DNA from: Marsupella aquatica
Taxonomy: Eukaryota > Plantae > Marchantiophyta
DNA: 64,000 nt
NCBI GenBank assembly: GCA_973895155.1
Contig: OZ316895.1
Span: 14,762,816 to 14,826,815, forward strand
Reading direction: 5' to 3'
A program made the translations under genes and the position numbers. Below, piece after piece: positions 43,301 to 62,689 of the stretch (the first letter of the stretch is position 1; the number at the start of each line of letters is the position of its first letter). The notes beneath the pieces are model-generated. The model saw only the letters and a program-made list of their open reading frames with translations, was not told the origin of the DNA and ran no database searches.

Positions 43301-44874
43301 AGACAATTGCCCCCAAGGTGCACGGCGTTAGACCGCAAGCATGTCAGCTATATCATAATGTCAAAAACTGTCAAGTTCAACCAAACTCCGAATGCCGGTT
43401 AAATCACGGCTCCAACGGTGAGATTGCGTACTATTGGTACACACATTCTGCGAACGGAGTTGTTGCAATATGAACTGAAGACAAATTGATACGTACATTT
43501 ACGTGCACACATTCACCAAGTTCGTATGTTTGGTGGTCCACTTCAGCACGTGAGTAATGAGCGAGACATTCAGGCTCATCAACGTCACTGCGTACAGAAG
43601 TAAGGTGCATATCTCTCAAAGCTGCATTCGTAGTACTAGGCAGTTCTGACAACCCCTTTCCGGGAAAATCCTCAAAATGCAAGATCGAACATAGTACAAT
43701 TGGACCTCAATTATTCTCTTCTAAAGACCCTGGACCGGCGTATTGCTTCCAGAATGCATTGAAATAACAGAGGGCTGAGAATGCACTAAACTCAGAAATA
43801 TGCACCGAGTTGCAATGCCAATTTTCAGTTCCAAGGTTAACATGCATAGACATTTCAAATGGCCTCTATCGCTAAGGTTGGTACGTTCTGGATAACAAAA
43901 AAATAAGCAGACGCAGTCACTACTTTCTCATCGAAAATCGCACTACGAAGATAGAGGATGGGCAGGCACGTAGAACAAAACTTACTCATTGGAATTCTTC
44001 CTTTTGTGTAGAGTATCACCATTCAAAGTAGCCTGCTTTCAGAGAATCAAAGAACATACTTCAGGATGAGCCTTACCAATTTTGTCAACGAACAACACTA
44101 AGGAGGCCAAGAGAACCTACCAATGATATTACCTGACAGCAGAAGACGTGCAAAAGAGCAAAAGGCAATTACTGGAAGCTTTCTTCTAGCTAGAGCACGA
44201 AGTCATATGAAACCTGAATTAGCAAAACTAACAAGGGACGAAAAGCAAAACTGGAGTACAATCCGGAAAGTATGAGTTTACATGAGGTACCAGATAAGTA
44301 TATTAATTTTCTAAATTTGATTTATGGTCCATTGAAGAATTGGCAAACGAGCAAGAGTGAGCTCGAAAAGGTGAAAAAACCACCGCAATTCCCAAATTCT
44401 CTCCGTGAACTTAGAGTATCGATCAGAGCAGAGGAAGAATACCTTCGTGTTTGACTTCTTTGGATAGCGGTGAGGCCATCGGCGGATGGCTTCAGCTCTA
44501 GAGAATGGCTTTCCTAGTAAGCGGCAAGTCAAGGTGACGCGAGCATTTTTCGAGGGTGACGATGAAGGCTCCTTGTACGGAACCAAAGCACCCTTTCTGT
44601 TCCCCGCTTTCTCTCTTCTGCCAGAGCCTTCTTTCTCATGCTCATCACATTCTTCAAACGATCCTTCTTCCGCAGAGTTCTCGGAGACCACCTCCGAATC
44701 AGTTCTATCCGGTATAACATTCCTCAACGACTTGCCTCTGTAAGCAGAGGCCTTCTCCCGAACAACTTTCGGCTTCTTACTTGATCGAGAATTATTATTA
44801 GCGGAGGGAGAGTCCGACTTATCGTCGCTAGCTTCGACGGAGGACGATAGAGCTCTCTTCGATCTCGTTCCCAT
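37332..44874 (-). CDS. CMT: Chromomethylase (BAH, chromodomain and C5 DNA methyltransferase), multi-exon
   Basis: BAH region ([27 protein letters not shown]), motif [16 protein letters not shown], chromodomain YEVEKILG...[16 protein letters not shown], motif [13 protein letters not shown], motif VI MENVVD, motif [25 protein letters not shown] and motif [15 protein letters not shown] at 37332. An alternative in-frame ATG lies at 44886. Confidence 0.96.
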
Positions 44875-45117
44875 TATGGAGCACATAAAACTGCCCCCGA
44901 AAACGAGTAAGCCCCGCACGCCCTGTGAGAGCGAAAATACCGAGAGTAGCTCTGACCAGCATGTGTCACAATGTCACGCTGCCACACTGGCTGAACGCTG
45001 ACAAGAGACCAAAAGACGAGAATGGGACCAACCACCCTTTAGCAATGGAGCAACCATAAACCGAAGCAGCTCTAAAAAATTGCCCTCCGAAGGTCAATGT
45101 TCAAAACTGAGCTCGAC

Positions 45118-46163: not shown

Positions 46164-47860
46164 GAGCATCTCCAGGGGTTTGGAGTTAGCTCGCCGTTGT
46201 CCCCATCGTATAACGGAGAGTATGGCGGTTGCCAAAATAGCAAGTGCCAAGACCTTTGTGCGATTCCCAACGGTGACCCCCAATTCTGATCTCCACACTC
46301 TGACCACACGTATGAACTAGGCCCCATGCGTAATATGATGTTCAACGTGCAATAGAGAAGCCCGTCTGCGAGAGAGAAGTCAAGGCGGGAGTTGAAGTCC
46401 TGCTGAAGAACCAGATGCGCCAGCATACACATGTTGCAGCAGGCGCATCAATTTTTTGTGTTTTGTGTTGCATGTGTGCCTTAATATCAATGCAAGCTCA
46501 TTGAAGCGACCTTCAATCAGCTTGTGTGATTTGAATCGGAATAAAATTCAGTTTGACCACGAGTGTATTATATCTGTTCAATGGAGCAACTGTAAAGATG
46601 GTTGGCGGATCTTGATGAAGAATTCAAAGAGGAGGAGGCCGAATGGGATGAGGAACAAAGATTTTGGGAGTTGATGATGCTCAGTGGACCCCTTGCTGCT
46701 ACAAATTTGGCCAGGCACACCAGAAAAAGAAAGCACGGAGGGTCTAGGCCAGGCAGGAGTGAGAATGTGGAAAGGCGTAGAGAAAATGGGGCAGAAGACC
46801 TCTAGAATGATTATTTTTTGCTAGTCCAACCTATGACGAGTTGACATTTCAGAGGAGATTCAGAATGAGTAGCAGTTTGTTTAGCAAAATTCTTGTTGAT
46901 GTGTGTGCACATGACACTTACTTTTGCCTAAAGGTTGATGCTGCAGGGAAAGTAGGCTTGTCTCCACATCAAAAGTTGACTGCAGCATTGAGGCAATTAG
47001 CTTATGGAACTGGGGCGGATGGTTTGGACGAGTATTCTAGAATTGGTGAAAGCACAACATTGGAGTCTCTATATCGCTTTATGAAAGCCATCAGAGAGTT
47101 GTATGAGAGTCACTATTTGAGGAAGCCAATTGTTGGAGATTTCAGAATCACCTTCAAATTAATGTAGATAGAGGTTTTCCAGGTATGTTTGGCTCATTGG
47201 ATTGCATGCACTAGGCATGGAAGAATTGCCCTGTTGCTTGGCAAGGCCAATACACTAGCAAGGACAAGAATAAGTCCATCATCATGGAAGCCATTGATCA
47301 AGAATTGTGGATTTGGCATGTCTTTTTTGGACTGGCTGGGGAAACAAAGATCTCAACGTCCTTGACAGCTCACCACTTCTAAATGAATGGTTGTGTAATG
47401 ATTCAGCCAATGTCAGTTTCCATGTGAATGGTACAGAGTACAAACGAGCTTATCTTTTGGTTGATGGAATTCATCCTGAGTGGTCTATGTTCATATCCAC
47501 TGTGCACATGCCACAATCTGAGGAGTTGAAGCATTTTGCAAGGTGCCAAGAAGCAACAATGAAGGAGGTGGGGAGGGCTTTTGGCGTACTCCAAGCTAGA
47601 TTTGAGATAGTGAAGAGGCCTATACGGTCTTGGTATGAAAAACATTGTTAACATTTTGCTTGCATGTGTCATCCTTCACAATATGATTATTGAGGAAGAA
47701 ATGGATGATAATTTCCCTCCATATGTAAATGTTGGTGCTGCAAGAGTTAACAGAGTAAATCTGCCGTGGTTGGAGTTCCTTGCTCCAACAGCTGAAATTC
47801 ACAACAAGGCCAACCATTTTCGTCTAAGAAATGACATTGTTGACTACCTTTGGAGTTGAA
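46164..47860 (+). mobile_element. PIF/Harbinger transposon, left part
   Basis: Tourist/Harbinger-type terminus GAGCATCTCCA at 46164, followed by a transposase pseudogene. The right TIR was not found. Confidence 0.7.
46581..47859 (+). pseudogene. PIF/Harbinger (HARBI1/ALP1-like) DDE transposase pseudogene
   Basis: FQRRFRMSSSLF, DAAGKVGLSPHQKLTAALRQLAYG, GFPGMFGSLDCMH*AWKNCPVAWQGQY, DLNVLDSSPL, YLLVDGIHPEW, EVGRAFGVLQARF and ACVILHNMIIE, with TGG>TAG stops and frameshifts. Confidence 0.92.
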
Positions 47861-49178
47861 GAGGGTCTGGCCTTTCTGACCATTGATAGTCAAGTGAGTG
47901 TTCGAGTACCAAACTTGCAACTTGCGAGAAAAGTTTTGGTTTCTCAAATTTTAAGTACATTAAGAGCTGGTAGAAGACTTGTTTGAGTTGTTTGAGTTAC
48001 AGCAGTATTTCTTTGATTATGATCACCTCGTCAGAACACTTGGTCTTGTTTTCTGAAATTATGTTTTATTTTGAGACTGTGTTGCCTGGAAAGAACATGG
48101 CGGTGTAGTCGGGTCAAATAATGGAGGAGGGGAAGAAAGAAACCTTATTTTTGAGTTGAAGATGCTTGGTGGTGGTTTGTGTTTTAGAAGAGGTTTAAGT
48201 TGAAGAAGATACTGCAGTAAGACAAAAGAGGAATGAACAAATTTTGGCTACTTTAATTGTGGTGCGTCCCATGGCTCCCTAAACCCAAGAAACCCCCCAG
48301 CTCAAGCCGATTCCCGCAGGTTTCGTGCTTGGCGAGGCCGTTTCCGCGGCTTAGCGGCATGGGACGCTGCTAACCTTCTACTACTACTATTAACATTTTA
48401 CACACATATACTGGAAAGATCCTTCATCGGGTCATGAGATACGTAGCCGGCCTAATATAGGCCTTCCCCTGTCTTCCCCTGTCTTCCCCTCTGTCTTGTT
48501 AGGTATGTTTGGATTCCGCCGCCGGAATGATCCCCAATAGGCTTGGTTAAGCCGCTAAGACCTCTCTCAGCTCGACACATCCACCTCTCACTCCCCTGCT
48601 TACTTTCCTTCCTTCTGTTGATGTGGGCACTCTTCACACAAGTTAATGCGACACACAAATAGCAAAATAACTCATTCTGACTGAGTCATACCATGCACTT
48701 GCCATACAAACAGTACATCTCATACACAAGTTCTGCGAACTAAGCCGTGAGGCCAACTCTATTCAGCTCTTAGGCATGAGGAAACATGAATATACACAAG
48801 GGTCACTGTATGACTAACCGAGAGCTTCTCGTACTACTTGATCCCAGCCCGGCTGGTGCAAACTAAAAACTTGCTAAAGAAGAGGCCCTGAGCTCCCCGC
48901 TGCCCAGGTACTTATCCTGGTAGTGGATCCGCCATTCTTTGCATCGTAAACCTAATCTACCTGACAGTAATCTACTTGCCCGAATCTACCTATGTACAGC
49001 AAGGCAGGAGCACAAGTGTTGCTCCTACCAGTGGGACCGCAATCCCACTAAGCTAAGTGTCAGGGCCGCTCCTGGTTCTGATCCTAATCCTAAACGTGGA
49101 GATCCGCGCCCGCCCTGCCCACTCACGCCTCCTCCCTCCACGTCCGCCCTCCCTAAAAGGAACGGCGCCCTTGCACCG

Positions 49179-51170
49179 TCACGACACCGGTGGTGGATCC
49201 TTAATGGACGCCCCCAACGCTTCCTCCTCAGCCACTGCCGTAGGTTCATTCTCTGATAGATTACCTGCCCTTGACTGAGTCAACTCTCCATCGGCCTGAC
49301 TGGGTCCACCTTCGGCTTCAGCCTCGACACCGGCCTCGGCAATACCCACGGCTTCGGCCTCAGCCACTCCCACGGCTTCGGCTTCAGCCACTCCCTCGGC
49401 TTCGGCCTCCCCTTCCCCTAGGGTAGTTGGATCCTTAGCCGTGACCCTGTCTGGGGTCGGTGCTGGGTCTACCTCCTTGATCACCACGGCCTGTGAAGTC
49501 GTATTACTCCTTGACCCTGAAGGTTTCCGCTTCTTCTTCGTTGGTGGCTCGGCAGCTGGTCCCTTCCCCTTCCCACTTACTTCCGGCACTGGTGCAGGTG
49601 GCGCGGCTTGTCCTTCGACAATTACCACCCCTGGTAACTGGTTTGTCCCAACGGGAGATGGACCTGCTGCAGCTAAGCATTTAAATACTGCGGCTTGTTT
49701 CTTCAGCCGCTCTGTTTGGTTGTCGGCCCGCCGCTGTAGGTTCTCCATCTTCCTCGTGATTTCCTCCAACTCCTCTTGGGTTTCATCCAGGTCCTTACGT
49801 GCCCCCTCCAGCTCGTTTTTGGCCTCCTCCTGCTCCCTGTGGGCTTCCTCCAATTCCTTCTTCAAGGTAGCCCTCTCCTCCCGGGTTGCTCTTAGCTCCT
49901 TGTCGAGCTCTGCAATGATGACAGACTCCATCTGGTTCATCTTGGCGTAAGTCTGTTCGAGCATCTCGTCCTTCTCCCTTAGGTCGGCCTTGAAGTTGGC
50001 CGTCAGGGACGCAAGCTCCTGCTGCAGCGCCATAATCCCTTGATAGGATTTCCCTAACTCGACCTCCTGCTGCTCAAGGGCTCCGCGGATTTTCTCGAGC
50101 TCCCCTTTCAACGCCCATTCCTTTCTTTGGGTCTCCGCCATGGCCCGGCTGTTGGCTGTTATGTGGGCCTCCTCTGTATTCTTCAGCTCTTGCTTCCACT
50201 TCTCCCTCTCTTTGATCGTGTCGGCCAACTCTCCCTGCGTCTGAGTTAGTTTATCATTGATATTCTGATTATCAGCATGCGCGGTGTCCAACTGCCCCTG
50301 CATGATGTTCAGCTCATGTCGTTTAATCCGCAGTTCATCTTGGGCTTTCTTGGCCGCCCTTAGATCTTCAATCTCGGCTTCCATCCTCCTAAGCCGCCGA
50401 ATGACCTCGTCCTTCTTGCTTCTCTCTAAAGCCACCGCTTCTTCTAATTGGTGCTTCTCCAACTGCTCCCTATGGAAAAAGGGTCCTATCTCCAACTCCT
50501 CTCCAAAGATGCCGAGCGCAAGTTCCCCACACATCTCACCATACTCCATGGCTCTATTCTTAGCGTAGGTGGAGTAAGTAGAAGTGATCGGCATCGCCCA
50601 TCGTGGCCTCTGCTCCCAAGCCGTCCTGCGGATCTCTTCAATCGTGGCTAGAGGTTTGCTTCCTTTTTCGGCTAGCCGCCTGATGCCCTCCGACCAATCT
50701 CCTCCTGGTAAATCCTTTTCCTTAGCCAGGGCGGCCTCTTCCTCCTGCTTGATTCGCTCCTGAAATTCCTGCACCGTCTGTTTTATGCCGTCGAAGCTCG
50801 GGGGAGCAACATCTGGTGGGGGAGACTCAGGGCTACTCTGCTGGTTGGGGTCCCCTCGCACTACCCTTGGAAGTGTGGGGACAAACCGGCCACAGGTCCT
50901 TACTCCTGGAACGTGATGGTCCGACCCATAGCCGGAATTATCATGGCTGCAGTCCTCCATTGCCTCCTCTACCTCTTGGACGTCCGGCTTCTCCCTCTCC
51001 TCTTCGTCGGTAGGAGCTTCAGGCAATTCTGCCTCAGATTCGGAGCTTGAGGTTCCCACGTACATTCGAACACCTGGCTTGGATTCCGGCCTGATTCTCT
51101 CCTTGTCTCTAGCAAAGGGGTTTTCTCTTGTGAGCCGGTGTAGGCCTACCTCTGTAGTAGTGTCCTGCAT
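49179..51170 (-). CDS. Element ORF-B: long coiled-coil protein with NLS-like PPTKKKRK; in frame with ORF-A
   Basis: 663-aa open frame with an acidic N-terminus, a long E/K/Q/L-rich heptad region and EAEAVG repeats. Confidence 0.7.
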   Translation of the reverse strand: MQDTTTEVGLHRLTRENPFARDKERIRPESKPGVRMYVGTSSSESEAELPEAPTDEEEREKPDVQEVEEAMEDCSHDNSGYGSDHHVPGVRTCGRFVPTLPRVVRGDPNQQSSPESPPPDVAPPSFDGIKQTVQEFQERIKQEEEAALAKEKDLPGGDWSEGIRRLAEKGSKPLATIEEIRRTAWEQRPRWAMPITSTYSTYAKNRAMEYGEMCGELALGIFGEELEIGPFFHREQLEKHQLEEAVALERSKKDEVIRRLRRMEAEIEDLRAAKKAQDELRIKRHELNIMQGQLDTAHADNQNINDKLTQTQGELADTIKEREKWKQELKNTEEAHITANSRAMAETQRKEWALKGELEKIRGALEQQEVELGKSYQGIMALQQELASLTANFKADLREKDEMLEQTYAKMNQMESVIIAELDKELRATREERATLKKELEEAHREQEEAKNELEGARKDLDETQEELEEITRKMENLQRRADNQTERLKKQAAVFKCLAAAGPSPVGTNQLPGVVIVEGQAAPPAPVPEVSGKGKGPAAEPPTKKKRKPSGSRSNTTSQAVVIKEVDPAPTPDRVTAKDPTTLGEGEAEAEGVAEAEAVGVAEAEAVGIAEAGVEAEAEGGPSQADGELTQSRAGNLSENEPTAVAEEEALGASIKDPPPVS

Positions 51171-51200
51171 TGTTGCCGTTGCCGTTGTTGTTGCCGATGC

Positions 51201-52802
51201 CTATTTCTTTTCTTTCTCCAGTAGTTTCAGCAGACTCTGCATGCCTGGTTGCTGCATCGGCAAGTCTTCCTTCCTGGGCCTAAACACCTGCTCGATCGTA
51301 GGACTAACAGGTGGTTGAGGCTTCTCAGCCAACGGCCTCGGCATTGGAGCTTCCTCGGGTGCCCTTACCTGCAGGGGAAGTACCGGGGCAAAAGTCTGAC
51401 CTCTGGCATACCGGCACAAGAGCGGCATGTGATAGCCAAGCCGCGACACGCTCCCCATGCCGATTACCTGCTGCTCCTCCTTTAAGATCTTCTTCAATTG
51501 GTTGAGGAGGTACCCGTTGTAGTCCCGGCTTGGGTCTGGCCTTTCTGCCAGATAGACCTGTGCCTTGCCGATCTCTGCCCTCGGCAAGTTACAATGCATG
51601 GTCACCCGCAAGAAGTCGATCATCTCTCCTATGTGCGGGTTGGTGCAGGTGTTCCGGAAGAAGCCATTCTTCGTTGATGGCCCGGGGAACGACCGGAACT
51701 CCTTGTCAGGCAAGGTCTTCCTGGTATCAACTTTGGTCTTATTGCCTATCGGCAAGCCAAACACTTCGGCAATTACCTTGGGAGTAAGATAGAAATCCTT
51801 CCCATATATCCTCGTGCAATTGGTCTCGGGTTCCCATGACCCCACGAATTCTAATAGGTCTGACTCCGGTACCTCCGGCTTCAGCCATGGTAATCTTACA
51901 AAGGCCTCCAAGCCGGATCCGGCCATGAAGCCTTGGTACTTCTTGGTCTGCATGGCCGTAAAACATGCATCCTCCTCCCGTGCAAAATGTAGTTGCACCT
52001 CCACCGGTAGGGTTGCCGCCCAGCCCTTCCAGGTGTCATCCCTGGTTGGAATGGCCTTGATGGGATCGACCTCCTCCTCTTCGGCTTCTCCCTGCCTCCT
52101 GCTCTGCTGCTCGGCTGGCTTCTTTGGTGCCGCCGACCTCGTTCTTTTTGCCGGGGTGGCTTCATCGTTGACGGCTCCCTTCCTCTTCATCTCTGCTGTC
52201 GTGGAGGTTTCTCCTAGCACCGTTGCCTGGGTCCACCTTTCCGTGCTACCCTTTAATTCCCAGTGTATGTCGTTGCAGTTCTTGATGGCCTCTCGGATGC
52301 CGACGACGCTGTCTTTGCAAAACAGAAGATCGTCGAGTTGATTGGAAGTAGGCGTCCACAGGAACTCGTCCTTGATGAGTTCACCTCCTAAGAAAGCCGT
52401 CTTCTGCAGCTCCCACAATCGAGCGAGCTCCAGCCGTTCTCGAGCTGCCCTTTCTGATTCCTCGTCCTCGTAAGTCTTGATGTACTCAGTTGCCCGTTCG
52501 AATAGGCATCCCCAGAAATGTGCCGCTTGATTGACGTTGCTCATACCCTCCTTAGGTTGATCGTCGGTATCTACTCTCTCCCCGAGTGCTTGCCTAAGCA
52601 GCTGACAGTAGTTGGCCTCCCGTAGTCGTCTGCCTAGTTCGTGCTCGCAAATGAGCCACCATCTCCTGCAAGCGCTCCTTACCCCTCTCCTCTGCCGGTC
52701 CTTCTTCCCGTTGATCCTTCCTAGCCGCCGACGCTTAACGCGCCCTAACCCTAATCGGGTTTTCACCCTTAGCCTTACCTCCGGCCTCGGCCCGGGTTCC
52801 AT
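51201..52802 (-). CDS. Element ORF-A: basic N-terminus and PMD/Transposase_32-like domain
   Basis: Open frame of 533 aa from ATG 52802. GLEAFVRLPW...EFVGSWEPETNCTRIYGKDFYLTPKVIAEVFGLPIG resembles the plant mobile domain core (W.PET..F....E.TITLEDV..LLGLPI.G). Confidence 0.65.
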   Translation of the reverse strand: MEPGPRPEVRLRVKTRLGLGRVKRRRLGRINGKKDRQRRGVRSACRRWWLICEHELGRRLREANYCQLLRQALGERVDTDDQPKEGMSNVNQAAHFWGCLFERATEYIKTYEDEESERAARERLELARLWELQKTAFLGGELIKDEFLWTPTSNQLDDLLFCKDSVVGIREAIKNCNDIHWELKGSTERWTQATVLGETSTTAEMKRKGAVNDEATPAKRTRSAAPKKPAEQQSRRQGEAEEEEVDPIKAIPTRDDTWKGWAATLPVEVQLHFAREEDACFTAMQTKKYQGFMAGSGLEAFVRLPWLKPEVPESDLLEFVGSWEPETNCTRIYGKDFYLTPKVIAEVFGLPIGNKTKVDTRKTLPDKEFRSFPGPSTKNGFFRNTCTNPHIGEMIDFLRVTMHCNLPRAEIGKAQVYLAERPDPSRDYNGYLLNQLKKILKEEQQVIGMGSVSRLGYHMPLLCRYARGQTFAPVLPLQVRAPEEAPMPRPLAEKPQPPVSPTIEQVFRPRKEDLPMQQPGMQSLLKLLEKEKK

Positions 52803-55311
52803 GGTTGCCCCTAATTGTTTATATTTTCCTTGTTTTGTCACTATACTAAGGTGTTCCTAGGGTGCCTTCCTACTTTACCCACTTAACCGGCCGAGTGATT
52901 CTTGTCTAGGCATCACATTAATGCTTTTGTGGCGTGTTTTTCCTGTTTCAACATGTGGCAGACTGGAAGGATTCAAAATTCATAAGGACATGGTAGTTGA
53001 TTGTTAAAGAGAGAGGAGGTTAGAGGGAAGTTTGGAAACTCGGGGAAGGGCAATGAGGATTTTTTTGTGAAGGATCGACCAAGAGAGCTCCAAGGAGCAG
53101 AGGGCGATGATAGTGGGAGGAGACTTCAGACATAATGGATGGAAAGACCTGGAGGTTCCTAGTGGTTGGAAAAAGCTTGATGGGGATTTGAGAAAAAAGG
53201 ATCACGAGTTCGTCATTGTATCATTGGAGGAGATCTGAGGAGAAAAAAAGTGTTTGGGGGCAGAGAGGATTGGAGCGCTAAGGAGGATTGGATCAAGTGC
53301 TGGAAAATGGAGGAGTGATGGTGCTTGGCAGAGAGAGGTCAAGTGCTTGGCAAAGAGAGGTTGAGTGCTTCAAAGGAGAAAAACAATTGTTAATGAAAGG
53401 ACTGGGGAGGCCATGGGGACGCTGCGTGGCTGTTTGAGTGCGAGGAGGGAGACAGAGTTCTTTGTGCTGTTGTTGAGAGTGTGATGGAGGCGTTTGGAAG
53501 AAAAGTAGTAAAAATGCAATGGATGAGGACTGATTGCAAGGAAAAAAAGGCAAAGGCGGATTTTGAATGCTCATGTTTTATTCAGATTTGAGGTGCTATG
53601 GAGTTGATTTTCTTCATGAGAAAGAGCAAGAAGAGGGAAAACGACAAGCGATGAATGCAAAAAAATCTTTGGCTGAACAAGAAGAAAACAGAATTGCGCT
53701 ACAAGGAGTGTAGAGAATTTTTGGGAAGTAGATCATGTGTTAAGGAGCAGAGCTAGGGTGATCAGGACTTTGTGGAATTTTTTCACAGGAGAAAGGTGAG
53801 GGAAACTACATTCCAGAAGATGGAGGAGGATTAATGACTTCTCCATTGAATTGATTGAATTTACCTTGGAACTGGGTAAGAGTAGAGATCGAGTGATCAA
53901 GTCTCAGTAGTAAAGAACGAATGCTTTTAAGTGTGTATGGAGTGTTGCGTTGCACTGTGCTGCATTGTGTTGAAATGAGAATGTGGAGAGTTTTCTTTTG
54001 TGTGAAACAAGAGTGACCAGAGAGCAAGAGAACATAAGCTATTGAGATAACAGAAAGAAGAGTTGAATGTGCTACAAATGTGAAGACTGGGAGGTTTATG
54101 GACAAGAGGCAAACAGAAGAATGAATGGGATAAGAAGAGTTGAATCAAACAGATAAATGTCCGTTGCACTGTAGGGAGCAAACAAAATGTTTTTTTAAAG
54201 ATTTTGGAATGAGCTCGCGAATTGAGGCCTTTGATAGAGAGTTTGCATACTAACACTATTGACTCTGGAGTTATTCAACTCGAGAAGAGAGGTGAATGAA
54301 AACAAGCATTGTTCATGTTTTATAGTTTCGACTAAGGGATAGAAAGTAGAGTTAAAACATGGAGCTCTGTTTTGGAGAAAGGATGGATGGTGAAGGTGAA
54401 ATTGGACGAAGGTTTTTTCTGTTATGGGATTGGAGGATCGAGAAGAGGAGGAAGGAAGGGCCAGCAGAGGAAGAGGCTCGGGAAGAGAAAAAGAGAAGTG
54501 ACGTGAAAAGGGAAGCTTGCCACCGACTGAAGTTTTGCAGCGATTGTCAAGGAAAGACAATAGACAACTAGAACCTGACCTAAAGACCTGACCTGACCTG
54601 ACCTGAGTGATCCGAGACCCTAGCTGAAGAATGGACGACAAAAGAGTGCCTATTTGAGTTGACTTCAAAAAATGTTGTAAACCTGAAAAAACCCGAAAAG
54701 GTTATATGTATAAAGAGTGTTTAAAAGTTTAAACGTATCAAGTTGATTTTTGTTTGTGAATGAAATACTTAGCCTTTCAAAATTGATTTATTTCTGAGTG
54801 ATGAGAGGTCCATAGGGCTGAAAGCAAACAAATGTTAATAATACAAAACAAAGAGTCGAATTAGTTAAGAGCATGTGTGATGTTGAACTTTAAAGAAAGC
54901 ATGAAGATAAGAAAAATTTAGAGCTTGGTTAGAGGTTGTTTGCTCTTACATAAGTATATAGCCTTCAGAGACTCAGTTAATAATAAATAAATTAAAGTAT
55001 TGGTTGTTTTTGACAAATGGAACCCAGTAATAGGAACCATATTTAGAAAAAAGCATATTGGGACATATCACATGAAAAATGTTAGAAACTACGAGTGAAA
55101 TAATAAGTTTTTTAATTGAGAAGAGTTAAGGAGTCCCTAGAATTCTTTCCGAAACCTATGTTTCACACCACTCTTAAATGGTCCTTGGAAAGCAGAGGTG
55201 AGTGGAATAGCGCAGGCCGATGAGTGACACCGCAGAATGATTGAAGGAGCAATTACGTAGGTTGAAGAACAGTGGAGCTCTAAAGAGTCAGATATTCTTT
55301 ACGTCAATAAC

Positions 55312-56915
55312 TTGAGTGTTGGTGACAATGTGGAAGTAGATAGCATTGACATGTCCACTGTTTTTGATGAGGTATCTAGAGACAGTGTTGCTATTAACCG
55401 TTGTGACACTCTGGTCAACAGTAATCTTGATGTCATTTCTGCTAGTAAGACATTAGACGGAAGGGCAACTGCGGTCAGTATGCAAAGGCTACGAGCACTC
55501 CCCGACCCTGGCTTAGTAGATGCAGGGAAGGGGCAAGAGAGACTGCCATTGGAGAACAATGACAGGTGGGCCTTGAAACGCGCTAATGATTTGAGGAGAG
55601 GGTTAGGTTGGGACATGTCAATAGCACTAGGAGACCTGTCATTGAGGCAACTTGACGAGTTATTGAGTGTACTAATTAATCAGTTTTTGAGAGTTGTTAA
55701 GGTGGATGAGACCCTTTACCCCTCATCTACGCTTATGAATATGTGTAATGGCTTCAACCATATTATTAGAAGGGCTAGTGACATCAGGCCTTTGAACAAA
55801 GAGACAATCTGGTTGACCGTGACTTCAACATAAACTCGCATCCAACATTTGCAAAAATGCATGGTCATCACAGCTGCAATCAAGAAAAGTGCAAAGGAAG
55901 GGGTGAATAAGAAAAGATTGAAAGTAAGTGTCACTCACTTGGTCCATGAGCCTTTCTTGAGATCATTTTGTTTGTGTACAATGAAGTGCAAATCTATGTA
56001 ATCTGTATAAGCAGGATAGTACTACGGATTCTCTACCTATATGTTTACAATACCAGAGCGCTTGTTGGCATTAGGCAGTAGTTATTGAGAAATGAAAGTT
56101 ATGACCCTTTTTGTTACATGTTACAATCAGAAATATTGACTGAGGAACATGAGAGCAGTTTTGGCTTATATCGATCATCAGGTCACGTCAAGCCATGGAT
56201 GCCAAAAGCATTTGGCATTTGTTTTTCTTGCGAGACTTGGTATCCGTGGCAAAATGGAACTATGGAACTTGCACAAAGACAACATCACTGTATGCATGGA
56301 CAAGTTAGGGAGGGCGTACGTCAAGTGAGTTCTCAATCCATGATGTATTCACTTTGATAAGTTGTAGCTTGTTGGAGTTTCTTTAAATTGTAGTTTCTTT
56401 CTTTATTTGCTTGGTGTTTTTGTGGCAGATTTGAGGAGTGGTTGAGTAAAAACAACAATTACACTAGGGATTGCTACAGATAGCAGTTAAGAAATGTTTT
56501 CCATAGTTTCAAAGAAGATTTTGTGATGACTGTGAAATAGTGTAAGCACAATTTTCCATCTATTGAGAAGGCAAAAAAACCAGATTTGTTTATGCAAACT
56601 ATAACTAACCCTGCTCGCATTGTGTGGTACAATAAGATTCAGAAAGTTGGGAAGGGTGTTGGAGGAGGTTGGCTGAAGAATATGGCCTTACTGGTTGGAC
56701 AGCCCCCTGAAATTTTCACTAATCGGAGTGGGAGGGCAACATTGGTGACATGCATGGCTGCCAAGGGAGTCCCTAACAAGGTAGGAATGGCCATTACTGG
56801 TCATCGGAGTACTAGAGGTTACAAGAGGTATGACCAAACTCAAACACTGAAAATGGAGGATGTTGCATTAGTATCTGCAAATCTGAAGTTAGCTTATGAA
56901 ATAAGCACTCGCTCA
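55312..56915 (+). pseudogene. Crypton-like (DUF3504-type) tyrosine recombinase pseudogene with two spliceosomal introns
   Basis: Across frames: NDRWALK...LDELLS..FLRVVKVDETLYPSSTL, ILTEEHE, LGIRGKMELWNL (catalytic R), FEEWLSKNN (K), WYNK..KVGK and FTNRSGRATLVT...GVP....ITGHRS..GYKRY. GT-AG introns at ~55924-56130 and ~56325-56428. Confidence 0.8.
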
Positions 56916-57250
56916 CACTAGTAGAAACCGGGGCATTTTGTGACCAGACCACTTGTGACTGGGGTGACCACGCAAGTGCAACCTTTGAACATCAGTCTTA
57001 TTTTTGAGACCCCACAAGACTTGATAGTCATTAGTAGTCATGTATATGACTACTTAAGACAATTGAACTTTTTAAAAATCTTGCTCTATTGAATGAGTCA
57101 TTCAGGTCTGACTACATAGTCATACTTAGTCAACATAAGACAATGGCCAATAGTAAGCCAAGTCCAATTTAGTCAACAAAATTGACTTGTCCATTCATTT
57201 TCATTGTGGCCATTGAACACTTTTTAAAATAATGTAGTGCCATATGCCTG
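56916..57250 (+). mobile_element. CACTA element terminus inserted at the 3' end of the recombinase frame
   Basis: CACTAGTAGAAA at 56916 supplies the TAG that ends the YR frame. GTCA/TGAC-rich subterminal repeats follow. The other end was not seen. Confidence 0.65.
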
Positions 57251-59402
57251 GTTAAAGGATATTTACCCGATCCCATACACATTCTGAGCCATGGGATTAT
57301 GCTTTACATAGCCATTGACTGAACTATATGCAAGGGGCATAAGGGTTTGCTAGGGAGGCTTTTTTTGGGTTTTGTGTTACATGAAGTGCAGTTTAGGCCT
57401 AGCTAACTCATCCACATGCATGTAACCCTTCCTGCCAGAGTTTAGGGGGGGTTGTAGCAAGACACCTAAAGGGGGTTTTAGGGGGGTTTTACCAAGACAC
57501 CTAAAGGGGGTTTAGGGGGGTTATATGACATGGGTGTGGGGGTTATATCGATCTCAAGGGGGAGGGGGTTAATCGGGGGACACGCACCATTGGATGGAGT
57601 TGATCGCCACCATCAGGTGAAACTTTTCCGTTCTCGCGTCCCGTTTAGTCGCACGTCCCGTTTAGTCACACATGTCTGAGCTTCGTTCGATCGGGAGATG
57701 GGAGAAGGTGCAGACACCAAGGCGGAAGTGCATCCTTGCGGCTGGCTAGGGTGCGCATTTCCTTCACTTTCCCTCATAAAACTACGAGCTCATTGTGGTG
57801 GTGTGGGTCCCGTATGTAACTTCTCCCATTGCCAACCTTCCATCACTGCGTGCTGGACACATTTGAGTCCTTGGGCTGCAAGTAGAGCGCATTCACAGTT
57901 GTGCCAAGGGAGGTGATCACTACTGCTGCGGAAGGAGGGAGTTAGTCGGGAGTTTTGCTACTACTGCGGAAGGCACTGCACAAGCTTTACTAATGCGGGA
58001 CCTGTGTGGGAGGCGTAAAGACTTAGGGTGAAGTCTAGTGCAACTATCCTTCTCTTCCAAGCGTATTGTGAGCTCGAACAACGTCGCGGGATTCCTGAGG
58101 TGAAGAGTGCAAGCTGCGACCAGTCTCAGGAGCAGCTCCTCAATCATCCCGGGCATTGGAGCTTAGTGAACTGTAAGTGCGTGCATACCCTTCCAGCTGC
58201 GTCTTTGACTAAGGAGCTCATCAATCTTCTTGGGCATTGGAGTTGAAGTGTCACTTGCCTATCCAACGATTAATATGTGCAAACCGTACTTTTCTTCGCT
58301 CAAACCGTTGGTATCGTATTACGGGGTCGTGGAGGGACGCTATTTGGAGGATTTCCACACCTAAGGATGAGTATGTTTGATTCCGCTCCCGGAAGTGTAC
58401 TTTTTGATCAAGTCTACCGACTGGTCTCTCCGTTTTTGATCAAGTCCAAGGGACTGGTCCTACCATCTACAACTCATGCCCACCGGGTGAGTGCTGTCAC
58501 CACCCCCTCTCATGGGCAAGCATACAAACGTTTACAATAATGTTTGAACACTAGTGACAAGGCAAATGTTTCCACAATGAAACCGACCACATGCACTAGG
58601 GGAGGAAAACAAACAACACAAGCAACAACAAGTGACACACAAAATATTGGAACCTCAAGCCAAATCCATATCTCTTGGTGTTTCCCGTAACACATGCAAG
58701 GGCAACCTGGCCTCCTGCCGTCTGCCCAACTCCTGCCTCCCGGGGACAAGTGCTACGTTCTCCACCTCACTACTCTGGCTTGAATTTCTCCTAATCGGTG
58801 CGCTACAAAAGCTACTCAACAACATCAAAGCACTACGTTGAGTTCCCCCCCCCCTCACTACTTCGGGGCTCTCCCCTTAAATACCGAAAAAACCACACCA
58901 AAGCACCCCTCATGGGGTCACAACGATGGCGGCTACCCTAGCGGCGCCGCTAAAACCCTGCACTAAGAAATCCCTAAACTAAAAAGGCATGCGGCACACA
59001 CATGCTGCTAAAACCCTAAACCCTAAACAAGGGGCCGACGGTGCCTTCGACGGCGCCCCAATTGTACTCCGTGAACCCTGAAATTGCAAGGCACCCCACA
59101 ATGGCTGAAACTAGGTGCCCTATCAACTGTACTTTTGAGCTCATCCTTGGATAGCCCTTCTCCTCCTGATCCCGAATCACTCAGCCGCACTCGCAACGGA
59201 CATCGGACGCCTGAGTTATGGTCGTTTCCGTATCGCGAAAACACAATTTCGTCGGGCCATAACTTGCTCATCCTGGCTCCGTTTGAGGAGCGCCGCCTCT
59301 TGTTGGAATCAGCTCCGTGAGCTCTTTCCAACAAGCCCGTGAGTGACCCCTCACAAAAAAGTTGGAAATCCAGAGGCCGTACAACCACATCCGTACGACT
59401 AT

Positions 59403-61257
59403 CTACTCCTCCTCTTCTTCACTCTCGGTGCCCTGGCTTGTGCCCCGTGAGTGGGCCTCCTCTTCATCACTCACGGGAGTGAGTGCCACCTCACTTTTCT
59501 TCTTCTTTACCGGGGTACTCTTCGTGTTGCCGCTCCCTTGCTTCCTCAAAGTGGCCAAGGCCTGCCACGCCTTGATGTACCCCTCACCAATGGTGTCCTT
59601 CCATAGGGTAGCCTCTTCTCCGGACCGCAACTCCAACGGTAGAACTTGCCCTGTGGCCATGGGAGTCCCGGGGGTGACAGACCTGGGTGGCATCCCCGTA
59701 CTGACCTGAGCCTCCCGTAACGATTTCCGTACCTCCCGGAGCTTATTCTCCAAGCCCTTGCTCTTCTCCTGACTCTTCTTGGCTCCATCCAACAAGGGTC
59801 CATACTTCCCACTAACCTCCTTCACCACCATCTCAATAGCCTAGGAGATCAAATCCGGGGAAAGTGTGGAGCTAGGTGTGCTGGGGTTCTTCCGTTTCCC
59901 CCAGGCTCAAGGCCTCACTCCTCTTTGCTCGTGTCTCAAAGGCGGCCACCTGACTCCGTAGTGCTCCCACCTGGTTTCTCCACTCCACCACTTCTCCAGA
60001 ATTCTACTTCTCTTTGGCCAATGCTTGTCTCAACGCTCCCACCTCTTCTGCTTCCTTGGCCTTGGTGGACAAGGCTCCCTTCAAGTTGGAGATCTCTACG
60101 TGAGCTGCTTGGAGAAGCTTAACCTTCTCATGAATGGTCCCCTCCTTGGCCTTGATCACCTCCTTCAGAGACAGGGTACTCTGCTCTAACGTCTCTACTC
60201 TGGCTGAGGCGTGCTTGAGAGAATCTCTCAATGCATGGATTAGCTTGAGTCCCTCATGGACTCCCTCTCTGAAATCCCGTAGCTCTGCCAGGTAAACATC
60301 CGGAATGTTGTAGACCAGGGGCTTTTTCGGATCTCCTACGAGTGATTCAAGCCACTCCAACGTGTAGTCCTCATCCTGGTTTTCTTCTTCTCTATCTTCA
60401 TCCCCACCAGCCGACGATGATTCCTCCGTGAGCTTCCCTATAACAGTAGTGGCAATACTCCGGATCTCCATGGTGAGAGATGATCCCGTGTCTTCCTGTC
60501 CTGGGGAACCAATCAACCCTTCTGCCCTGGCCAATACAAATGACCCCATCAAATGTATAGCCCCACCTGGTTTCACACTCCCGGGATCAGCGGCCAACAG
60601 CTTCTTCAACCCGTAGTACCACCATCCGTACACATGGGCTGGGTGGTTCTTGATGTCCATAGCTACCACGAAATGCTCTTCACTCACCACCTCGGATTGC
60701 ACGTTGCCAAGGACCCGTTGATGAACCTTGGCCAGGAATCCCTTATCCTCAACATCCTTGATAGCGGAAAGAGGGATGGCAATGGTGGAGGTGGGATTAA
60801 TCACCCAAGTGGCCACCATCTTCAACGTGAGTTCTCCCCTAATGTGCCGAGGTGTGAATGAGAATTTCTGATTCCCCAAAAACAACAGCCTAGCCAACTC
60901 CACATGGGGCACTACACGTTTGAGACATTCAAAGTAGATTCCCTCCGTTCGTAACTCCATCCCGGCCTCAATGTCCCAGCTCTTCCCCGGAGGGATGGTA
61001 ATCTCCACCTTCATGAATTCTGTAACCCCGGTGGCTTGGAAAATATTCCGACAATCCTCCATCACTTTGGCGGAGGTCTTGGGATAAATTCGACGAAAAA
61101 TCCTCCTACCCACCGGTGTGGAACCTGCTGCCAATCCCGTGCTCATCGTAGCTTCTCTCTCTTCTCTCTCCCTTGCAATCAAAGTCTCCACGTAGTCACG
61201 GTAAGCAGCCTTGTATCTCCGAATGCGTGCCACACTAAACTCCGATTGATCTAGCAT
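59403..61257 (-). pseudogene. Decayed element ORF (417-aa intact part at 60004-61257, continuing through frameshifts to 59403)
   Basis: After ...ALAKEK the coiled coil continues in other frames (ILEKVVEWRNQVGALRSQV; LIS*AIEMVVKEVSGK...PVKKKK). Confidence 0.6.
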
Positions 61258-61639
61258 TCATGCATCCTGAAATCAAATTCTCAATCACCAAATCCCGTCA
61301 CCCGTAGCAATGTCAATTCCCTGGCCCGAAACAGCCCCCGTAGCCCGATTAATTTATTTCTCTCAATCCCCTCTGTCGTCACTCCATGTTGCTGTCGTTA
61401 ATGCCCGGACAGTCCCCGCAATCCCCCATGAGTGAGCCTTGAGAAGAATTGGAGAGAAAGCTCAAATAATTGTAACATAAGGAGAAAGCTTTCGGCAATA
61501 AGGGAGAGAAACTCGAGTTTGCTTTCGGCAAGAGAAGGGTCGTGTGAAAAGGAGAAAAGAGGGGAGAGAAAAAAACAATGAAAACCCCCCCGGGAGCAGC
61601 TTTTCGCCTTGCGCCCCGGAGCCCTCCTTTGTCCCGACT

Positions 61640-61985
61640 CGCGGGAGTCCCCCTTCCTCGCAGCTCGCGCCTCGCACCTCGCGCCTCGCACCTCGCCCCT
61701 CACAGCTCGCAGCTCGCGGCTCGCGGCTCACTCGCGGATGCTTCCCCTTCCTCGCACGGCAGCTCGCGCCTCGCAGCTCGCGGCTCGTGGCCCGCAGCTC
61801 GCCCCTCACAGCTCACGGCTCGCGGCTCACTCGCGGACGCTTCCCCTTCCTCGCGCGGCAGCTCGCAGCAGCTCGCGGCTCACTCGCGGACGCTTCCCCT
61901 TCCTCGCACGGTAGCTCGCGGACCTCCTTAGGAGGGATTTATTTTAAAACCCCCCCATACTCCTCACTCGTGGCAGCTCGCAGCA
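61640..61985. repeat. GC-rich tandem repeat array
   Basis: Repeated cttccccttcctcgc.cggcagctcgc and ggctcactcgcgga units built from CTCGC motifs. Confidence 0.9.
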
Positions 61986-62689
61986 GCTCCTTGCAATCGG
62001 ATGTTGAATGTGAAGACAAGTCTGATTGTTGACACTGTACTGAATGCTAAGCCTCCTCTAAATCAATTCTGAGACGGGACTGAATGTTGAGATTGATGTT
62101 AGGTTTGCCTGTGGTCGGAACACTCTGCGAAACATTTCAATATATATGCATCCGAGTTCCCAATAAGTAATAACAGCCATCGTTGTCTAAAGTGGGCCTC
62201 TGGTAGTATTGTGCATCGGGGGCACTCAATAGGAAACTCATAGTTGCTTTTACCAACAACAGAAGCTGCATTTTTGAAGAAATTCCATGGACTTCATTGC
62301 TTGCGCAGTTTGTGACATAAAATGTCCAATTAGATGTCGGAATGAAGACATGATCTCTAACTGTCTTGCACTGTATGTCCTTTGAACTGCATTCTTAGAT
62401 AGCCCAAATAGTGGAATTCCAAGTGGGACAGTTCACAATCCACAGAGTTGAACCCATTCTGAAATAGAATATAATTCTGAAATAAAATATTTTCATTCAG
62501 AGAGTCATAAAGTCAAAACTAGTTCATTTTAACTTTGGCCACTGTCTAGCATGAAAGTCTGTAATGCATATACATATTCGATACCTTCATGTTTGTTTCA
62601 TGCATACATTCTTGGCAGTGACTGATGTATTCAACCTGGAATGTAATATTTTGGCTTCGATTGGCTCCTCTATTTTGCTAGCTTCTCAA

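Follow-up and report, generated by a model that had tools for sequence, protein, structure and literature searches.

A repeated unit bounded by a target-site duplication

The window analysed here is a 64,000-nt stretch of the liverwort Marsupella aquatica (contig OZ316895.1, positions 14,762,816 to 14,826,815). The feature under study is a 4,660-bp repeated unit at 48258..52917, which we read as a solo long terminal repeat (LTR) from its ends, the steps in sequencing depth at both of them, its varied flanks, a polypurine tract (PPT) and a shared flank. Its sense strand is the minus strand, with the 5' end at 52917 and the 3' end at 48258, and it holds a single long coding frame (49179..52802, minus strand). 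TGTGGTGC opens the unit at 48258 and GCATCACA closes it at 52917, giving TG...CA ends whose termini are inverted at 7 of 8 letters; no longer terminal inverted repeat (TIR) was found at the ends, with nothing past about 8-10 letters. A pair search in the window placed the two copies of a perfect TTAAT target-site duplication (TSD) at 48253..48257 and 52918..52922. Termini and duplication had been described at these positions in the first-pass annotation, made from the letters alone, and both were recovered. Its statement that internal direct repeats are lacking also held, since no part of the unit has a second copy within the window at E<1e-4. The GC content is 0.52-0.55 within the unit vs 0.42 in the flanks.

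An empty site, which the annotation had suggested looking for, was found as a paralogue of the flanking sequence in one public sequencing run (X5). This paralogue matches the window from 52923 onward, and the 30 letters before that point agree by eye with the left flank of the window at 18 positions, ungapped and with TTAAT counted once (binomial, about 6e-4); shifted by five, 4 of 30 letters match. A second paralogue, present in runs X2 and X5, has the same join with a slight length difference. Because the X5 paralogue matches the left flank in register with one 5-bp copy, the TTAAT pair is a true TSD, single at the empty site.

The unit or part of it is present in 15 of the 17 public runs listed, six of which, under four organism labels, contain half or more of its words. 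Contigs of four runs were aligned to 47000-54200 and contigs of four to 52840-53000, five different runs overall; summed contig depth is not copy number, and depth at the right end was read in 6-bp bins. At the right end, summed depth fell from 141,470 (52912-52917) to 175 (52924-52929) in X2 and from 22,797 to 32 in X5, with the step at 52917/52918. At the left end it rose from 213 to 734,131 in X2 and from 0 to 386,919 in X1. Either end shows a change of about three orders of magnitude in X1, X2 and X5; depth goes down to zero at the unit ends in X3 and X6, and in each of the two alignments the steps lie exactly at the unit ends in all four runs. Loose contig ends before 48258 are mixed (41 contigs with an agreement of 0.36 in X2; 4 contigs, 0.55, in X3), and the joints 49112->48258, 50854->48258 and 52917->49481 place unit ends inside other copies. 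Many joints with short sides (20-27 letters) were disregarded, being probably due to chance. The depth steps and the varying flanks establish the unit as real and repeated: it is highly repeated, in dispersed copies that end at identical bases, as the annotation had proposed to check, and its family is clearly abundant in two of the sequenced organisms (A and B). X5 carries the exact window junction without a difference, may be the source of the window DNA, and is not independent for this insertion.

The copy in the window differs from at least a quarter of the aligned depth at 197-250 places over 7.2 kb. A variant without 48533-49115 (583 bp of the tail) is represented by a joint in X2 and a matching loose end in X3 and narrows the location of the essential signals of the LTR. 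None of the listed runs carrying the unit is an RNA run, which has no bearing on expression. Metagenome contigs contained 0 exact matches to the left end of the unit, and scanning them with the alignment of relatives gave 185 pattern matches, 0 of which were confirmed; a broader alignment of relatives contained no conserved segment that could serve as a query. Nine viral contigs matching a 17-mer were rejected as chance, as none of the nine resembles the unit by BLASTN.

Polypurine tract, putative primer-binding side and polarity

At least four contigs run past the right end of the unit: three in X3 with unrelated flanks and one in X6 (record 20) that reads ATCCCCCTT past 52917. On the minus strand this is AAGGGGGAT, a PPT immediately before TG; comparable purine runs occur at 94 of 127,960 window positions. 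On the side where a primer-binding site (PBS) would lie, the consensus loose ends of X2 and X3, which carry two organism labels, match at 12 of 14 letters from 4 nt beyond CA (about 4e-4). We take this shared flank to resemble the tRNA-Asn-type PBS of Tat elements, a hint in which 3-4 of 14 letters are off and no tRNA was matched. A literature search for that motif gave unrelated primers only, among the matches listed. Self-priming partners for the shared flank were no more frequent in the window than expected (11 matches vs 11.3).

The PPT and the shared flank imply one polarity, and the open reading frame (ORF) is sense to it. On these sequence signals, the unit is an LTR with minus-strand sense. 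It is very probably a solo LTR, an insertion made by an integrase whose internal region was removed by unequal recombination. The first of the two options raised earlier, a solo LTR from a family with a large LTR gene, is thus supported by the PPT in one copy and the shared PBS-side flank, and the same two signals make it unlikely that, as the second option had it, the unit lacks LTRs and belongs to a new class. The unit is most likely a solo LTR, its family being unusual in architecture, and no new element class. The parent element is most likely a Ty3/gypsy retrotransposon, judged from LTR size and from the nearest neighbours of the protein in ESM comparisons (below); the excerpted text of PMC6317226 describes 5-bp TSDs in non-chromovirus gypsy elements, and LTRs that reach about 5 kb.

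A long coding frame with selection-like variation

The frame runs for 1,207 codons from its first ATG (52802), which lies 115 nt inside the unit end, and makes up 77.8% of the unit, close to the share of about 78% given earlier. Frame translation shows one in-frame stop, at 51201-51203. The contigs of all four runs have another letter there, so the stop is private to this copy, and because of it this copy is probably dead as a full-length gene. The start is likely ATG 52544 (Met87), leaving 1,121 codons, because no relative matches before residue 91 and the relative P0008 begins within one residue of Met87.

Variation was counted in 40 of 485 difference rows, 21 of them within the frame, with the stop site left out. 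Six of eight variants segregating among copies are synonymous vs 4 of 12 private to this copy; the segregating class departs from a one-third synonymous expectation (p 0.02), and Fisher's test between the classes gives p 0.17. In this small sample, the pattern agrees with selection while lineages replicate and with drift once a copy has inserted. All five indels within the unit (among 12 of 32 rows) lie in the non-coding tail. The earlier suggestion of a fairly recent insertion stands in part, qualified by the 197-250 differences noted above and by private changes that look unselected.

As the first-pass annotation had stated for gag, reverse transcriptase, RNase H, integrase and DDE motifs, mobility functions were not recovered. 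Reading of all six frames of the unit for motifs gave no reverse transcriptase, protease, gag knuckle or convincing integrase motif, one loose H-H-C-C pattern in the non-coding tail being interrupted by a stop. No Pfam family scored above cut-off for either half of the frame.

Relatives and predicted fold of the protein

A HMMER search over 1.84 billion proteins returned 23 matches. Ten were looked up, four of which are Calypogeia fissa proteins without names, and one of the 23 (P0019), a bacterial repeat protein, was dropped as spurious. The core alignment A1 leaves out P0005, P0006, P0008, P0013, P0022 and P0019, and P0029 and P0030 were added. A word-indexed protein search returned two Calypogeia proteins of near length and none among longer proteins, the latter being weak evidence against a gag-pol fusion. 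Relatives of the LTR-borne protein thus occur in leafy liverworts. In the P0018 cluster, the C. fissa relatives CAM6101869/70 and CAM6101879/80 have neighbouring accessions on one contig and are possibly two close copies.

The conserved N-terminal domain (residues 87-206; 52185..52544, minus strand) is 35-38% identical to P0005, P0008 and P0013, and a search of the ESM Atlas with residues 40-200 gave no usable match. It is followed by a core globular domain (51378..52064, minus strand) for which fold prediction indicates a VANC21 (PMD/MAIN-like) fold. Among 48,161 chains, the sole solved structure with this predicted fold is VANC21 bound to DNA, at 8% identity to the core. Further on, an E/K/L-rich predicted coiled coil (49700..50500, minus strand, limits approximate) was read from the sequence, with coiled-coil Pfam matches below threshold only; a basic KKKRK cluster and an acidic repeat tail come after it. 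No transmembrane stretch was found in the protein (top 19-residue hydropathy 0.98), a search of the PDB by sequence gave no match, and a viral fold comparison gave none either (best E 0.078). The nearest ESM neighbours are the ATHILA, Transposase_32 and PMD families (scores of 0.89-0.91), and a Pfam search by sequence gave no match of these types.

Regulatory signals and a proposed mechanism

The sole TATAAA of the unit (52818..52823, minus strand), 95 nt inside the LTR 5' end, is a candidate promoter for the gene. The 921-bp non-coding tail (48258..49178, minus strand) likely comprises the 3' end of the gene and the R (repeat) and U5 (unique 5') parts of the LTR. Within it, 2.8 copies of a 10-bp tandem (48463-48490) immediately precede a TATA-like CTATATT (48454-48460) that lies about 200 nt from the LTR 3' end; a 15-mer is also repeated 2.7 times. 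No motif or k-mer enrichment was found in the tail over 300 resamples.

Solo LTRs arise by recombination between LTRs, an established pathway. Here, a full element would have integrated at TTAAT and LTR-LTR recombination would have deleted its internal region. On the simplest reading, a giant U3 (unique 3') region may have absorbed an Athila-like 3' extra ORF together with its promoter, and the tail would hold an ordinary R-U5. In the route that we slightly favour, the element began to use a PPT upstream of such an ORF; this would have placed the gene in the LTR and led to copying of ORF and promoter to both ends. Every LTR, solo or not, would then carry promoter, ORF and 3' end together and be self-contained as a gene, which we consider rather likely. 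The protein may be nuclear, multimerise through its coiled coil, bind short motifs of its own family and lower their methylation, a role to which we give a little less than an even chance. The excerpted text of PMC13547354 relates VANC structurally to MAIN and presents coiled-coil multimers as models for VANC and for the Athila domain alike. Taken together, we regard as probable a solo LTR carrying a gene of about 1,120 codons with a VANC21-fold core, predicted to encode a DNA-binding factor that counters silencing of its family.

Several results weigh against this interpretation. DUF1985 and DUF287 were not matched by Pfam in the query or in 19 relatives, and no clear VANC-like tandem target array stands out in the unit. 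Since MAIN uses the fold for silencing and a clear target array is lacking, anti-silencing and another chromatin role are about equally likely. The end pattern of the unit is not beyond chance: counting the unit, the window contains 26 pairs at a spacing of 0.3-15 kb that combine TG...CA with a 5-bp repeat and inversion at 7 of 8 letters. The main support for the ends comes from the depth steps in the aligned contigs.

The strongest competitor, somewhat short of an even chance, keeps the solo LTR and its gene and assigns the protein another task, either as an adaptor on chromatin, PMD/MAIN-like, that directs integration or transcription, or as a coiled-coil partner with a structural role in the particle. 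Extra ORFs with PMD and coiled coil are common in Tat/Ogre elements, where their function is not known according to the excerpted PMC4408406, and MAIN, with the same fold, acts in silencing (PMC13547354, in excerpt); that no VANC-like motif array stands out points the same way. On the other side stand the DNA-bound VANC21 as the only solved structure with the fold, and the basic clusters and the lack of a transmembrane stretch, which argue for a nuclear and not an env-like role. It is also conceivable, if unlikely, that the gene lies in a very long R and not in U3. Genomic RNA would then start from the TATAAA near 52820, with the ORF as first cistron upstream of the PBS, comparable to the 5' extra ORF of Ogre. 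The position of that TATAAA near the 5' end and the sense 5' PMD-coiled-coil ORFs of Ogre-type elements (PMC4408406, in excerpt) agree with this arrangement. It would require a strong-stop DNA of about 4.5 kb; moreover, the usual place of an LTR promoter is taken by the TATA-like CTATATT, some 200 nt before the 3' end, and the nearest ESM neighbours are families of Athila-type 3' ORFs.

Two further explanations deny that the unit is an LTR. A non-autonomous unit without LTRs, which an integrase or a Ginger-type transposase would move in trans, is very unlikely: the copy stands alone, with a TSD and TG...CA termini, dispersed copies with identical ends are numerous, and no internal region was seen in the window, but a PPT adjoins one end and a shared flank the other, with the polarity of an LTR, and the TIR of at most 8-10 letters contrasts with the 100-150-bp TIRs, 6-bp TSDs and DDE domain of GingerRoot (PMC6839031, in excerpt). 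That the ends are chance matches within an internal fragment of an ordinary Athila/Tat element is most improbable. The 26 occurrences of the end pattern and the resemblance of the protein to internal extra ORFs speak for it; against it, depth falls at the exact base in four runs, the flanks vary and the empty site has a single TTAAT equivalent. Depth steps and empty site refute this explanation unless contigs are misplaced, and the solo LTR is the reading that we retain.

Flanks and other features of the window

The insertion interrupts a low-copy repeat (47900-48252 and 52923-54700) that is strongly G/A-rich on the plus strand and has paralogues in X2 and X5. To its left lies a degenerate PIF/Harbinger transposase remnant (46600-47860, plus strand; PF04827, E 1e-32), which is repeated in the contigs of the runs. 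The decayed LINE (long interspersed nuclear element) proposed earlier as surroundings of the unit was not borne out: none of nine flank frames, read through stops, contains a LINE domain or any other Pfam family, and the PIF/Harbinger remnant is the sole named flank.

A second GC-rich unit lies at about 58500-62040 (minus strand); it has tandem repeats at 61637-61920 and a 417-codon ORF (60004-61257) with a coiled coil at its end. A search for ends bounded by a TSD gave nothing convincing, and its ORF gave no alignment to the core profile (probability 0.7%); it may be another LTR-borne or internal extra ORF. Broken frames at 55261-56921 (plus strand) look by eye like what we take to be a Crypton/DIRS tyrosine recombinase, and 44311-44973 (minus strand), about 3.3 kb from the solo LTR, looks by eye like the first exon of a presumed chromomethylase gene; Pfam matched nothing in either.

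Comparison with known systems

Protein genes inside an LTR, copied to both ends, are known from sag of mouse mammary tumour virus and nef of lentiviruses, which lie in or across U3. These are genes of animal retroviruses, and their proteins are unrelated and much shorter. Among plant elements, the unit resembles the Athila/OTA Ty3/gypsy group (ATHILA PF03078, Transposase_32 PF20167, PMD PF10536) in its ESM neighbours, its 5-bp TSD, the great length of its LTR, and an accessory ORF that combines a globular domain with a coiled coil. The extra ORFs of that group are internal, positioned 5' of gag or else in the interval from pol to the 3' LTR, as given in excerpts of PMC6317226, PMC7264820 and PMC11728184, whereas the whole ORF of the unit lies between the PPT and the PBS-side end and would be doubled in full elements and kept in solo LTRs. 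The extra ORFs of Tat lineages III-V likewise have a PMD-like fold followed by a coiled coil, but they are internal and from seed plants, while the ORF of the unit lies inside the LTR of what is likely a liverwort element; the excerpted source reports that no extra ORF was found in moss and lineage I-II elements (PMC4408406). In the literature titles and opening abstracts searched, which covered few subscription papers, no whole gene inside a plant LTR was described; the REXdb supplements and Steinbauerova 2011 may list cases.

VANC21, a protein that relieves host silencing, belongs to VANDAL21, a Mutator-like DNA transposon (PDB 9LNJ/9LNK; PMC5735166), and thus to a different context from a retrotransposon. 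The protein of the unit, known from its sequence and predicted fold, is 8% identical to it in the core and gave no DUF1985 or DUF287 match, and the unit has no clear tandem target array. Neither a transposase nor a long TIR was found that would place the unit among VANDAL or other Mutator-like elements; it has a 5-bp TSD and a PPT instead. Ginger and GingerRoot elements encode a DDE domain and have long TIRs, with TSDs of 4 or 6 bp (PMC6839031, in excerpt), in contrast to the TIR of at most about 10 letters, 5-bp TSD and lack of DDE in the unit.

What extra ORFs do in plant retrotransposons is called an open question in excerpts of PMC7264820 and PMC4408406, and whether Athila ORFs modulate methylation is left open in that of PMC12844716. 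The predicted VANC21 fold offers a concrete and testable answer. Our broadest proposal is tentative and rated well below an even chance: a liverwort gypsy lineage would have moved a VANC-type gene with its promoter wholly into the LTR, its solo LTRs would multiply a counter-defence gene acting in trans to de-repress the family, and extra ORFs of the Athila/PMD type in plant retrotransposons would generally be VANC-like anti-silencers. VANC is said to be confined to dicots in the excerpted PMC13547354; VANC-like factors would then sit in a lineage far older than dicots. In the usual view, LTRs of plants do not code for proteins and a solo LTR is a dead end; an LTR that is a whole gene contradicts both assumptions. 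Such a gene would also mislead annotation into host-gene calls; several relatives are annotated as unnamed Calypogeia proteins. If the proposal is true, solo-LTR formation, the usual route by which the host disarms such elements, would multiply stand-alone copies of a counter-defence gene.
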